A stretch of DNA of 64,000 bases, from sequence record MZ234030.1. The stretch is one strand, 5' to 3'. A program made the position numbers and the translations under genes. The notes beneath the pieces were generated by a model. That model was not told the origin of the DNA. It made no database searches and was given only the letters and a program-made list of their open reading frames with translations. Below, piece by piece: positions 4,352 to 9,010 of this stretch. Within the stretch, counting starts at the first letter, position 1, and every line of letters starts with the position of its first letter. The stretch comes from Escherichia phage vB_EcoM-CHD16UKE1.

Positions 4352-4380
4352 TTTACTTTGCCACAAGGATGTGGTATAAT
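4351..4380 (+). promoter_or_regulatory. T4-type early promoter (GTTTAC / TATAAT)
   Basis: gtttactttgccacaaggatgtggtataat; near-identical copy at 51396. Confidence 0.55.
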
Positions 4381-4408
4381 GTTCTTACTTTCTACTGAGG
4401 AGATTAAT

Positions 4409-5410
4409 ATGACTCGTAACGAATATATCAAATCATTCAATAGCGTTATTGATGATAAAGTTAAACCTGTGTTTAGTCAGAATAGTGTTATTTCCATTAT
4501 CAATCAATGGCTTAATAATATTGATGCAAGTATTGTTTCTTCAAGCAAATTTATTCATGAAGTTCATAAAATTTCTAGTCGCGAATATAAAGATGATATT
4601 AAGGAAACTTTTAAAGGTTCTCGTCTTCTTTCATATTTAGTTAATCAAGATATTCTTGGTAAATTTGGGAAAGAAATTAAACGAACTAAAGATGTAGTAG
4701 GATACAGTTGGTTCGGTGATGTTAATTCTTATCATCTTAATAATAAAGAAGACCCTGAGAATATTTTTACTCGTCGTTGGATTAGTAATTTTAGACTTTT
4801 CAAGAAGCAAATTCTAAAATCAACTTCTAAATTATGCTATGGTGATTATCGTCAAATCCATCCTTGGGCTTCTGATATGATTATCATAAAAGAATATGAG
4901 CTTGATAAAAATAAAGCAGCTATTTTTGTGAATTATGAATTTTTTACACCAGAAGCTAATCAAAAGAACATTAATAAATTTTTCTCAATTGCTAGCGATA
5001 TAACTCGTCAGTTAGAGACCGCATTACTTTGTATGGAAACAGTAGAAAATATTCATACTTATCCTTTTAAGAATATATGCGGTTGGGAAGGATATAAAAT
5101 TGTAGTTAGTCTCCGTGAAGTAAAGTGTGCGTACTCACCGACTGATAAAGAAATTTACCAACAAAAATGTGATGAAATTGTGAATACTCCTAAAGAAGAA
5201 ACTACCCTTGAGGAACTAATGGAATGTCTTGACGATTCGCCTGAACCAGTAGAAATTCGTCCAGAAGTTATTGCACTAGAAAAAGCTTATAAAGAAGTTC
5301 TAGAAATTTCTAATAAAGCGCAGAAAGAATATGAGCAGGCTAAAAAGATTTGGGAAGAATCCGTTAATCGTCTTGATCGTCTTGAACAAGCTTTACAGTT
5401 AATTAAGTAA
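4409..5410 (+). CDS. coiled-coil paralogue family member 3 (333 aa from ATG 4409)
   Basis: ORF track 4358..5410; ATG 4409 with GAGGAG SD; motif RRWISNFRLFKKQILKSTSKLCYG. Confidence 0.5.
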   Translation: MTRNEYIKSFNSVIDDKVKPVFSQNSVISIINQWLNNIDASIVSSSKFIHEVHKISSREYKDDIKETFKGSRLLSYLVNQDILGKFGKEIKRTKDVVGYSWFGDVNSYHLNNKEDPENIFTRRWISNFRLFKKQILKSTSKLCYGDYRQIHPWASDMIIIKEYELDKNKAAIFVNYEFFTPEANQKNINKFFSIASDITRQLETALLCMETVENIHTYPFKNICGWEGYKIVVSLREVKCAYSPTDKEIYQQKCDEIVNTPKEETTLEELMECLDDSPEPVEIRPEVIALEKAYKEVLEISNKAQKEYEQAKKIWEESVNRLDRLEQALQLIK

Positions 5411-5462
5411 TTTAAAGCCAAGGATGGCTCGGAGTATAAACCATTAACCAAGTGAGAAGAAT

Positions 5463-6392
5463 ATGAAAACTCGTAAACATTATATTGATTATTTTGACAG
5501 TCTTATTACTAAACATCGTGATTATCAGATAGGACACAGAGCAGTAATCAATAATATTCTTCGTGATTTCCTTCAGTATGTTGGCCAGGAAAATCATATC
5601 TGTAAAGATACTCAGAACGCTTATTCTCATTCGTTAGGCAATTTACTTGAATGGTTTAAACGTTCTCGTATGTTATCTTCTACTGTAGCTCGCGATAACA
5701 TTAAAAACTTTATGAAGCCGAGATTCATTAAAACTGCGACATCTATAACCGATTTGGTTGAATTTACTATTGTTAACGATGTTAAAAAGACCCATTTGGC
5801 TGATTGGTTATCTACCATTCCCGAAACTAAATTTGCTGATAAATTCGCTTGTCAATTCAATGACCAAGTGAATATGCTTTTTAAGCATGCTCGTAAACTA
5901 TTTACCGCGGGCGATGACCGTACAAATACAGTTCATGTTAAGGATTGGGTTATTGCTGATGAAGTAACACACAAGCCAGGTGGTTCATCAGTATTAATTA
6001 ATATCCAGGTTCCTTATTATTACTCACGTAATCTCGGCACCATGACAGCTAGAGAAATTAATAAGCACAACAAAATTATTCGTTCGTTGTCTTATAAACT
6101 CTGCACGATGGTGGAGATGATGGACGTAGTGGAAATGTATGACGAAACCGAAGATAATGATTCAATGCTGTACAGTTCACGCATTCTAATTAAACTGAAG
6201 AACCCTAATACATATAAGCAAGTTGTAAAAGAACCTAAAGCAGAAAAGGCTGATAATCTGAGTGAAGAACGCGAATATCTCAATGCTCGTTTGATTGAAG
6301 TTGAAGCCCAAATTGCAGAACACACCAAATTGTTAAAAGCTCTTAATGCAAAAGCAAATGGTTTACGTAATGCTATTGAGGTATTGAAATGA
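5463..6392 (+). CDS. coiled-coil paralogue family member 4 (309 aa)
   Basis: ORF track; C-terminal coiled coil; weaker shared motif. Confidence 0.45.
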   Translation: MKTRKHYIDYFDSLITKHRDYQIGHRAVINNILRDFLQYVGQENHICKDTQNAYSHSLGNLLEWFKRSRMLSSTVARDNIKNFMKPRFIKTATSITDLVEFTIVNDVKKTHLADWLSTIPETKFADKFACQFNDQVNMLFKHARKLFTAGDDRTNTVHVKDWVIADEVTHKPGGSSVLINIQVPYYYSRNLGTMTAREINKHNKIIRSLSYKLCTMVEMMDVVEMYDETEDNDSMLYSSRILIKLKNPNTYKQVVKEPKAEKADNLSEEREYLNARLIEVEAQIAEHTKLLKALNAKANGLRNAIEVLK

Positions 6393-6778
6393 AAAAGCGT
6401 CTATTAGAAGACATTGCAGCTTCAAGTAATTCCAGTTTAATTAAAATTATTATGGCTGGTGAGGAAGATGATATGGAAATGCGTGGAAAGATTCACGGCT
6501 GCGACGATTTAGATTTTAAACCTCCAGCATGGGATGCTATTATGGCTATGGTTGAACGACGTGAAAGGGCTTCTAAAAACGTTCCTAATTGCCCTGAATG
6601 TGGAACTGAACAAGTTCAATTGATTAACTGGCGTAAACCAGAGCTTGAATATAAATGCCGTCAATGTAAACATAAATTCAGTAAGCATGCTCCGGAAATG
6701 GTTAAATTGCCTGACTCTACTGAGTTCTTTAAAGAACTTGTGAGTGTTCAACCAATGCCTAATAATATTTTGGATTAA
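6389..6778 (+). CDS. zinc-ribbon protein (CPEC..CRQC), 129 aa
   Basis: ORF track; two CxxC pairs. Confidence 0.45.
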
Positions 6779-6780
6779 AA

Positions 6781-7023
6781 ATGACCAAGCGTAAAGAATA
6801 TATGGAGGCTGCTGAAAAGGCAGTCCGTGAATTAGCAATAGCTTATTATAATGAACATGGTAAATTTCCTGATAGATACAGCGTGCTTAAATCTGCTTTA
6901 ACTCGTTCATATAAAAATATGCTATCAGAAGTAAGTGATATTATATACAAACATAAAGAACAAACGGGCCAAAGTCTTGATTACGACGAGACTTTTAAAC
7001 AAGTACTAGGAATTAAGGAATAA
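6781..7023 (+). CDS. hypothetical protein (80 aa)
   Basis: ORF track. Confidence 0.4.
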
Positions 7024-7024
7024 T

Positions 7025-7288
7025 ATGTTTAAAGTATATGGTTATGATAGCAACATTCATAAATGTGTGTATTGCGATAATGCAAAACGTCTTTTGACCG
7101 TGAAGAAACAGCCGTTTGAATTTATCAACATTATGCCGGAAAAAGGTGTTTTTGATGATGAGAAAATTGCTGAGCTTCTGACTAAACTAGGTCGTGATAC
7201 TCAAATCGGCTTGACAATGCCTCAGGTATTTGCTCCTGATGGAAGTCATATTGGTGGATTTGACCAACTGCGAGAATATTTTAAATGA
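7025..7288 (+). CDS. nrdC: thioredoxin/glutaredoxin NrdC (87 aa)
   Basis: ORF track; CVYC redox motif; length and position as recalled for T4 NrdC. Confidence 0.8.
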   Translation: MFKVYGYDSNIHKCVYCDNAKRLLTVKKQPFEFINIMPEKGVFDDEKIAELLTKLGRDTQIGLTMPQVFAPDGSHIGGFDQLREYFK

Positions 7289-7502: not shown

Positions 7503-7673
7503 ATGATTTACGATATTAATGTATCACGAGCTCCGTCAATGGTTACTATTCCAGCCGAAGAACTAGATCGTCTTCAGAAAATTGAAGAGCTTCTTTGGGA
7601 AATTGAATCTGATTTGCCATCAGGATTAGAATCCTGGATTGATTATGAAGAACTTAATAAGCTTCGGGGTTAA
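7503..7673 (+). CDS. hypothetical small acidic protein (56 aa)
   Basis: ATG 7503 to TAA 7671-7673, read from sequence. Confidence 0.3.
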   Translation: MIYDINVSRAPSMVTIPAEELDRLQKIEELLWEIESDLPSGLESWIDYEELNKLRG

Positions 7674-7795
7674 ACCTTGGTGGGCGGCTAGATGGGAAAC
7701 TGTAGAGCCAGAGCCGGAAGAACCGGTTTACACTGATGAAGAAACAGTATATAATGAACCAACGATAAATGACTTAATTGATATGGAGATGGGAC

Positions 7796-8281
7796 ATGAT
7801 TACAGTAGATAAGTGGTTTAGAATTAATCGTGTTGATACAGGGCTATGTAATTACTGGCCGGAACTTAGTGCAGGTACTGTCTTTAAAGTTCGTGAACTT
7901 GTAAAAGAATGTGAAGATGATATAGAGCCTGACACTGGAATTATTGAAATTGAACTTTCCGACGGAAAGATTATTAACATCTACGATAAGCCAATTACGT
8001 ATTGGTGCTTGTGGAATACTGAATCAGTCGAAAATGGCGAAATTGAAGAAGTTGTAGAGCGAACTAATCAAGTTGTTCAGAAGCCTAAAGCCGATTTTCA
8101 AGGTGAACGTATTTCATACGCATTAGCTAAATTAGCTGCACAAGAAAATAACGATGGCTATGAAGGTAACCTGATGCAAGCTGCCGCAGAGTACATTGAA
8201 TGGCTTGAAACTCAAATTTCTTTTTCTGACCAAAAGATTCGGCAATATAAGCGATTGCATCAAATGTTTTACAATACTTGA
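7796..8281 (+). CDS. pin: Pin-like protein (161 aa from ATG 7796)
   Basis: ORF track 7778..8281 (TTG); first ATG 7796 gives 161 aa; position between nrdC and 49 as in T4. Confidence 0.5.
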   Translation: MITVDKWFRINRVDTGLCNYWPELSAGTVFKVRELVKECEDDIEPDTGIIEIELSDGKIINIYDKPITYWCLWNTESVENGEIEEVVERTNQVVQKPKADFQGERISYALAKLAAQENNDGYEGNLMQAAAEYIEWLETQISFSDQKIRQYKRLHQMFYNT

Positions 8282-8492
8282 AAAAACTCAAAATTCTTTT
8301 TCTGACAGGACATTTTAATGAAAACCGAATTGGTTTATACTGAAAAGTTAAATGGCGGTAAGGTTTGGAAACTTTTTATTAAAGGACATTCTACGGACCC
8401 TCATATGACCACTTGCGTAGGAACCTATTCTCGTCCTACTAAAAAGATGATTCGACAGTATAAACGATTGCATCGAATGTTTTACAATACTT
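8211..8492 (+). repeat. split direct repeat: pin 3' segment (8211-8279) recurs as 8287-8306 plus 8444-8492 around an inserted small ORF
   Basis: ctcaaatttctttttctgac vs ctcaaaattctttttctgac; aagattcggcaatataagcgattgcatcaaatgttttacaatactt vs aagatgattcgacagtataaacgattgcatcgaatgttttacaatactt. Confidence 0.7.
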
Positions 8493-8494
8493 AA
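8318..8494 (+). CDS. small ORF (58 aa) whose last 15 aa duplicate the Pin C-terminus (KMIRQYKRLHRMFYNT)
   Basis: ATG 8318 to TAA 8492-8494; C-terminus encoded by repeat copy. Confidence 0.35.
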   Translation: MKTELVYTEKLNGGKVWKLFIKGHSTDPHMTTCVGTYSRPTKKMIRQYKRLHRMFYNT

Positions 8495-8505
8495 AAATAA
8501 TAAAT

Positions 8506-8536
8506 ACCCTTATCTATTTAAGGTAAGGGTTTTATT
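8506..8536 (+). terminator. hairpin (ACCCTTA / TAAGGGT, 11-nt loop) followed by TTTTATT
   Basis: inverted repeat read from sequence directly upstream of gene 49 ATG. Confidence 0.4.
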
Positions 8537-9010
8537 ATGTTATTGACTGGCAAATTATACAAAGAAGAAAAACAAAAATTTTATAATGCACAAAACGGTA
8601 AATGCTTAATTTGCCAACGAGAACTAAATCCTGATGTTCAAGCTAATCACCTCGACCATGACCATGAATTAAATGGACCAAAAGCAGGAAAGATACGTGG
8701 ATTGCTTTGTAATCTCTGCAATGCCGCAGAAGGTCAAATGAAGCATAAATTTAATCGTTCTGGCTTAAAGGGACAAGGTGTTGATTATCTTGAATGGTTA
8801 GAAAATTTACTTACTTATTTAAAATCCGATTACACCCAAAATAATATTCACCCTAACTTTGTTGGAGATAAATCAAAGGAATTTTCTCGTTTAGGAAAAG
8901 AGGAAATGATGGCCGAGATGCTTCAAAGAGGATTTGAATATAATGAATCTGACACCAAAACACAGTTAATAGCTTCATTTAAGAAGCAGCTTAGAAAGAG
9001 TTTAAAATGA
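8537..9010 (+). CDS. 49: endonuclease VII (Holliday junction resolvase), 157 aa
   Basis: ORF track; sequence and length match recalled T4 gp49. Confidence 0.85.
   Translation: MLLTGKLYKEEKQKFYNAQNGKCLICQRELNPDVQANHLDHDHELNGPKAGKIRGLLCNLCNAAEGQMKHKFNRSGLKGQGVDYLEWLENLLTYLKSDYTQNNIHPNFVGDKSKEFSRLGKEEMMAEMLQRGFEYNESDTKTQLIASFKKQLRKSLK

Follow-up and report, generated by a model that had tools for sequence, protein, structure and literature searches.

Illegitimate recombination in T4-type phages is known from the duplications and deletions in the rII region of T4, and modular shuffling in these phages reportedly takes place at promoter/stem-loop cassettes, as Arbiol, Comeau and Krisch are said to have described in 2010. 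The locus described here lies between pin and gene 49 (encoding endonuclease VII), which in T4 follow each other directly. Its closest described relatives are T4 pin, encoding PinA, which inhibits the Lon protease of E. coli (MEROPS I24, PF10465), and the DUF7279 family (phrog_3272, RB69ORF087c). Lon inhibition has been shown biochemically only for T4 PinA (cited in PMC8835725). In the searchable literature on PinA we found nothing on its C-terminus or on the origin of that C-terminus, and no paper in the searchable literature was found to mention DUF7279.

The window, by which we mean the whole stretch of 64,000 nucleotides of Escherichia phage vB_EcoM-CHD16UKE1 (MZ234030.1) that was analysed, comes from a T4-like phage of the genus Tequatrovirus and is identical, at equal coordinates, to the first 64 kb of vB_EcoM-CHD2BS1 (MZ234027). 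Its pin is 98% identical to that of T4, has 161 aa and carries the same kind of tail, but where T4 continues directly with gene 49 the window has a relic of another pin allele and a whole extra gene in between. We consider it probable that this arrangement arose by recombination in two steps, leaving a scar where pin, DUF7279 and gene 49 meet in T4-like phages. The features of the locus are:

7025-7288: nrdC, upstream of pin (ORF list and record annotation).
7645-7812: a 49.1-like gene, one of three small ORFs listed between nrdC and pin.
7796..8281, plus strand: pin (PinA, Lon-protease inhibitor), 161 aa, the 'fused' allele as in T4 and T2 (ORF list, record annotation).
8209..8231, plus strand: copy 1 of a 23-nt block, the pin codons for ETQISFSD directly before the fusion point (22/23 against 8284-8306).
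8231..8281, plus strand: pin codons 146-161 and the TGA stop; a tail that would derive from the 3' end of a DUF7279 gene (90% nucleotide identity to 8449-8496).
8281..8286, plus strand: A-run, the putative recombination junction, of T4 type to the left and of unfused type to the right (alignments to both types).
8284..8318, plus strand: non-coding remnant (the relic) of an unfused 148-aa pin, covering its last ~10 codons, ..TQNSFSDRTF and stop (aligns with the KIT03 and JEP6 pin 3' ends).
8307..8310, plus strand: AGGA Shine-Dalgarno-like motif within the relic, 7 nt ahead of the ATG of the 58-aa gene.
8318..8494, plus strand: intact DUF7279 gene, 58 aa, ATG start, homologue of RB69ORF087c (PF23945, phrog_3272).
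8441..8494, plus strand: native C-terminal tail of the DUF7279 gene (KKMIRQYKRLHRMFYNT and stop), the presumed source type of the pin tail.
8506..8530, plus strand: conserved hairpin just 5' of gene 49, a terminator-like stem-loop and the right-hand homology anchor common to all arrangements.
8537-9010: gene 49 (endonuclease VII), followed by nrdD.

The phage record labels the 58-aa ORF a hypothetical protein. Four consecutive CDS upstream of nrdC (4379-7023) are all labelled 'thioredoxin' in the record, which looks like annotation spill-over from nrdC and not like real thioredoxins.

The original prediction, made from the window alone, was that the 3' end of pin recurs downstream as two blocks around a small ORF. 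Both blocks are present and lie far beyond chance. Block 1 (8209-8231 against 8284-8306) matches at 22 of 23 positions (blastn E = 4e-6 locally, 4.8e-5 against the 64-kb window) and block 2 (8236-8283 against 8449-8496) at 43 of 48, ungapped (E = 2e-13 locally, 2.8e-12 against the window), showing that the similarity is significant at the nucleotide level. A direct-repeat search gave 83% identity over 63 nt for the larger match, and the earlier description of this second block, as 8444-8492 with a 3-nt indel and about 85% identity, is a fair one. Apart from the self-match the two blocks are the sole significant matches of the pin tail in the window; they are collinear and flank the start of the 58-aa ORF, and the tails of pin and of the DUF7279 gene share an identical run of 20 nt. 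The spacer had rightly been called unique (no second copy of about 8307-8440 occurs in the window, and the first ~42 codons of the ORF lie there), the ORF at 8318-8494 exists, and the C-termini of the ORF (KMIRQYKRLHRMFYNT) and of pin (QKIRQYKRLHQMFYNT) are as had been reported. Convergence behind the similarity of the tails was ruled out by the 90% identity at the nucleotide level, and an assembly artefact as origin of the junction by a 96-nt junction probe, which was found at at least 99% identity in about 100 independently deposited phage genomes. A further resemblance, between pin EYIEWLETQISF and endonuclease VII DYLEWLENLLTY (8189-8225 against 8783-8819, 70% nucleotide identity over 37 nt), concerns the peptides EYIEWLE and DYLEWLE and is probably due to chance (BLASTP E 0.012 in a single comparison).

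The family profiles divide the window pin into two parts. The Pfam profile PF10465 (Inhibitor_I24) matches it with 160.6 bits (cut-off 27) over residues 4-141 only and phrog_2167 covers residues 1-146; the C-terminal 16 residues fall outside both and do not belong to the Inhibitor_I24 family. Residues 147-161, on the other hand, match phrog_3272 (DUF7279 family) at profile positions 44-58 of 59. The tail is missing from the 148-aa pins, which end in ...SFSDRAF, from the RB69 pin (137 aa, ending in ...ERRLS) and from distant pins, those at 44-45% identity ending in EFSSKSF, EFNAKSF or AFSDRGF and resembling the 148-aa form. Because both the outgroups (indicating the ancestral state) and the family profiles point the same way, we assign the tail to DUF7279 and its acquisition to the 161-aa pin. 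To judge from these comparisons, pin of 161 aa, T4's included, is a chimera of which the last 15-16 residues come from a DUF7279 gene. All sampled 161-aa pins carry a Q in place of R53, which is invariant in DUF7279, as would be expected from one fusion event after which constraint was relaxed or altered. The junction residues are QKIR in the window, RMIQ in T4 and QMIR in the commonest allele. In a low-confidence AlphaFold model of the 161-aa pin (mean pLDDT 63) the tail, with a pLDDT of about 50, is drawn as continuing the last helix. The PinA used in Lon biochemistry would thus carry a relic of a deleted neighbour gene as its C-terminal 15-16 residues, and the natural 148-aa and 137-aa pins, which lack the tail, offer a ready-made test of its role in Lon inhibition. 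The borrowed tail of T4 PinA may be a new point.

The 58-aa ORF proved to be a complete member of DUF7279. It matches PF23945 with 62.7 bits (cut-off 24.5, E 3e-17) over the full length of the profile (positions 1-53 of 53, against ORF residues 7-56) and phrog_3272 at positions 1-58 of 59 (E 3.4e-34). The best-conserved segment of the family is the tail itself, RPTKKMIRQ(Y/F)KR(L/F)HRxFY, in which six of the nine invariant residues are located (homologues down to 37% identity, from Mosigvirus (RB69, Shf125875), Gelderlandvirus (S16), Dhakavirus and Gaprivervirus); T41, R46, K49, R50, R53 and F55 are all present in the tail of the 58-aa ORF. Nei-Gojobori dN/dS values were between 0.02 and 0.39 in 35 of the 36 pairwise comparisons among nine homologues (dS up to about 1.9) and undefined in the remaining one, in which synonymous sites were saturated. 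We conclude from this pattern of conservation that the ORF is a real, intact gene under purifying selection. A search with tblastn found it at 359 places in 357 phage records, and a profile search over 1.84 billion representatives gave only about 5 true DUF7279 clusters at 50% identity; weak matches in long proteins, spread over multiple stretches, were judged spurious. AlphaFold tentatively predicts a fold of three strands and a C-terminal helix, residues 42-56, which corresponds to the tail (pLDDT 81.6 for the best model, near 53 for the other four), and a Foldseek search of the PDB with this model gave no match below E 0.27.

The gene is located just upstream of gene 49 in four genera of the Tevenvirinae, namely Tequatrovirus, Dhakavirus (JS10, WG01, dhabil, C6), Gaprivervirus (VR7) and Mosigvirus (RB69ORF087c, Shf125875), and the window copy is in this usual position; in S16 (Gelderlandvirus) it comes after a 49.1-like gene, gene 49 being unannotated in the stretch compared. 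In WG01, Shf125875 and S16 the gene is present, tail included, with no pin annotated alongside. Judged by this distribution, the small gene has occupied the slot upstream of gene 49 from the ancestral state onwards. Elsewhere (genomes of KIT03 type and the Dhakavirus and Gaprivervirus genomes examined) its start overlaps the stop of pin, of a pin fragment or of another ORF, and in RB69 a gap of 9 nt separates it from the upstream gene, whereas in the window it stands alone after a non-coding relic. In the record of APTC-EC-2A (801-977 of the stretch compared) the DUF7279 gene is annotated as 'host protease inhibitor', a label that is unsupported and probably reflects only the tail shared with pin.

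These observations bear on the original reading of the locus, according to which the 161-aa pin came first and a foreign segment of ~136 bp entered its duplicated 3' end, creating a chimeric 58-aa ORF that copies the Pin C-terminus. The window alone, with unique DNA between two pieces of the pin end, fits such an insertion. However, the ORF is conserved with its tail in five genera and also in genomes without an adjacent pin, it is under purifying selection, and it is the tail of pin that is missing from RB69, the 148-aa and the distant pins; we therefore regard this reading as extremely improbable. The comparison of the pin-49 interval with that of other T4-like phages, suggested at the time as a check, reversed the polarity: pin is the chimera, and the 58-aa ORF, being a complete DUF7279 member with a family-conserved tail, is not. 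For annotation this means that the 58-aa gene should be treated as a bona fide conserved gene.

Four layouts of the pin-49 interval were found. In T4 and T2 a 161-aa pin is directly followed by gene 49 and the small ORF is absent. In KIT03 and JEP6 a 148-aa pin has its stop overlapping the start of the 58-aa ORF (TAATG), and there is no duplication. In ESh17 a 148-aa pin directly precedes gene 49. The fourth layout, with a 161-aa pin, the relic and the DUF7279 ORF, is that of the window and was also found in RB33, APTC-EC-2A, AV119 and several Yersinia phages. When fixed anchors are used, the T4 interval is that of KIT03 shortened by exactly 137 nt (at TCTGACCGA / ...AAAAAG / ATGATT, with slashes at the breakpoints), with 3 mismatches in the rest; APTC-EC-2A (window type) has 213 nt more than T4 and 4 mismatches elsewhere; and the Shigella phage ESh17 lacks 169 nt of JEP6, lost at a 3-nt microhomology (AAT), and has 1 mismatch in the remainder, the ESh17 allele (930-1010 of the stretch compared) being a clean deletion of the DUF7279 gene. 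Among about 506 Tequatrovirus-type pin 3' ends we estimated, from BLAST summary classes and not as a census, ~250 of T4 type, ~110 of window type, ~75 unfused and ~68 of ESh17 type. Exact-pattern scans of IMG/VR, a collection poor in Tequatrovirus contigs, for the four junction types gave one window-type contig and none for the others. The locus thus forms a natural allele series (ancestral, fused, deleted and re-joined) with clean breakpoints, useful for the study of illegitimate recombination in T4-like phages.

The history that we propose starts from a pin ending in ...SFSDRAF, the stop of which would have overlapped (TAATG) the start of a separate DUF7279 gene followed by gene 49, a state kept in KIT03, JEP6, RB69 and the Dhakavirus and Gaprivervirus phages. 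In the first step, which the alignment shows, a deletion of 137 bp took away 3 codons at the end of pin and ~44 at the start of the DUF7279 gene, leaving pin fused in frame to the last ~15 DUF7279 codons, i.e. the 161-aa pin of T4 and T2, with loss of the small gene. An insertion of 137 bp alone would give the same two-state alignment, the direction resting on outgroups and profiles. The fusion breakpoint comes after TCTGACC(GA), and because the breakpoints are without microhomology the mechanism of this step can be named only as illegitimate deletion.

The second step would have been recombination between a fused-pin genome and one of the unfused type. To the left, the join appears to be illegitimate, at the A-run after the pin stop (8281-8286), and reaches the other parent at a point ~35 bp short of its pin end; the right side would have been resolved by ordinary homology in or beyond the tail and the gene 49 leader. 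T4-type genomes match the window through 8284 (pin TGA and four A's) and diverge thereafter, and homology to the unfused type begins at AAACTC, at 8284, ~35 bp before its pin end (AAACTCAAAATTCTTTTTCTGAC...TTTTAATG). The product would be the series observed in the window, with the fused pin followed by the relic of 35 bp and then by an intact DUF7279 gene, and this series is what had been seen as a split duplication of the pin 3' end. The notion of a small gene acquired through short homologies is in part retained: there is a recombination scar, formed through very short homologies, and in its proximate history the gene was probably put beside a T4-type pin by recombination, but it is not a newcomer, being the ancestral resident upstream of gene 49.

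All window-type records listed share the unique part of the 58-aa ORF at 97.9% identity or more, the unfused-type copies being 89-93% identical, and about 115 records are at least 95% identical over this part, suggesting a single recent origin of the window type. Variation is greater among the T4-type pins, some of which have CGA (R) at the junction, presumably the ancestral codon; in the three window-type genomes that were examined the derived CAA (Q) is found. The near identity of the window-type ORFs, together with the retention of CGA among the varied T4-type pins, suggests that the window type is younger than the T4 type.

For the second step, the sequence of events given above is only the probable one, and a path that begins with a duplication gives the same junction sequence. 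Unequal crossover at the A-run/CTTGAAA site in a genome of the unfused type would have duplicated the pin 3' end-DUF7279 segment in tandem, a 137-bp deletion in copy 1 would have produced the fused pin, the window type would be the intermediate, and the T4 type would have followed by homologous deletion between the tails. Such a path explains the fusion without the small gene ever being lost, and the 20-nt identical run between the tails could support the final deletion. It needs three events instead of two, however, and two full tandem copies of DUF7279 were found at none of 359 places in 357 records and 266 places in 265 records. Moreover, the window-type ORFs are nearly identical and look young, while the T4-type pins are the more diverse ones and keep the presumed ancestral CGA codon. 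We consider this order of events unlikely, though deserving of some weight.

The relic at 8284-8318 still reads ..TQNSFSDRTF and stop, its TAA overlapping the ATG in just the way seen in the unfused type. The three codons before the stop have changed more than the surrounding DNA and now contain AGGA, where KIT03 and JEP6 have CCGAGCG and CCGAGCA, respectively, and APTC-EC-2A has CAAGGCA (AAGG). This AGGA would suit a gene without translational coupling to pin, by a putative role in initiation. Since the relic keeps the native translation-start region, now with AGGA, the 58-aa gene is probably expressed on the pin transcript. No promoter-like site was found between pin and the 58-aa ORF, the best Rfam matches on the junction (E 0.11 and 0.47) were well below the gathering scores, and the predicted RNA fold of the junction was not unusually stable (z = 0.39). 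No function of the scar itself is evident, the functional units being pin and the DUF7279 gene. On its right-hand side the alignment columns from the hairpin to the start of gene 49 are invariant across Tequatrovirus and Dhakavirus. Both the hairpin (8506-8530) and the AATAAATA box (within 8495-8536) are unchanged between Tequatrovirus and Dhakavirus, with a divergence of about 25% in the flanking DNA; they presumably correspond to the leader hairpin and the late promoter known for gene 49 of T4.

We also considered the footprint of a mobile element or homing endonuclease, with the repeats as target-site duplications or as flanks of a small cassette, as many homing endonucleases are encoded in T4-like genomes and, in VR7, an HNH gene is found two genes ahead of the locus. 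The supposedly inserted DNA has no inverted repeats, endonuclease or transposase gene or structured RNA, and the repeats (23 and 48 nt) are imperfect and split, in line with partial gene duplication and not with target-site duplication; we give this explanation practically no credence.

Fusions between pin and DUF7279 arose at least three times, as the T4-type tail, as a tail in an RB69-like metagenome contig and as an N-terminal read-through. The second case was observed in Logan contig SRR20302901 (1501-1926), in which an RB69-like pin, ending in ...ERRFHRDFYNVY, is independently fused in frame to the tail of the downstream DUF7279 gene (...EYLERRFHRDFYNVY and stop) at an ACGTTT microhomology, parallel to the T4-type fusion. 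The third was found in two separate ENA metagenome assemblies (1501-2076) as a fusion of 191 aa, in which the loss of 1 nt has abolished the stop codon of the upstream DUF7279 paralogue and its frame reads through into the N-terminus of pin. In RB69 (AY303349) this divergent paralogue, the second one of that genome (MQVKLLYRLLK...RPTKRQLRKAKRSHRNFYREY and stop), is located upstream of pin at 700-880 of the stretch compared. A +1 frameshift in an A7 run interrupts it there, and its only annotation is the 38-aa RB69ORF089c; metagenome contig SRR20302901 has an intact version (1329-1499). On the basis of these two observations, pin in Mosigvirus is flanked by two DUF7279 paralogues. In Dhakavirus and Gaprivervirus what is called 'pin' is an ORF of just 57 aa that corresponds to the C-terminal third of pin elsewhere (in dhabil at 1046-1219 of the stretch compared), followed in JS10 (729-1204) and VR7 (856-1301, both in the stretches compared) by a separate ORF of 90-100 aa, which in JS10 aligns with the N-terminal part of pin. 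The modules of pin seem to be rearranged or split in these genera.

A functional link between pin and the DUF7279 protein, with the basic/aromatic C-terminal helix as a transferable module (e.g. Lon-binding or degron-like), is a speculative idea that we regard as rather improbable. If it were true, the borrowed tail with which T4 PinA works would modify Lon inhibition, and the DUF7279 protein would be a second anti-protease or a partner.

Overall, the scar is of an ordinary kind for illegitimate recombination in T4-like phages. It resembles the gene shuffling described for T4-type phages in the short or absent homology at the breakpoints, in the in-frame fusion and in the presence or absence of a small early gene between otherwise collinear genomes. 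It differs from cassette shuffling in that no promoter-plus-stem-loop cassette is found at the junctions, the breakpoints here being an A-run, a 3-nt AAT and a blunt join.
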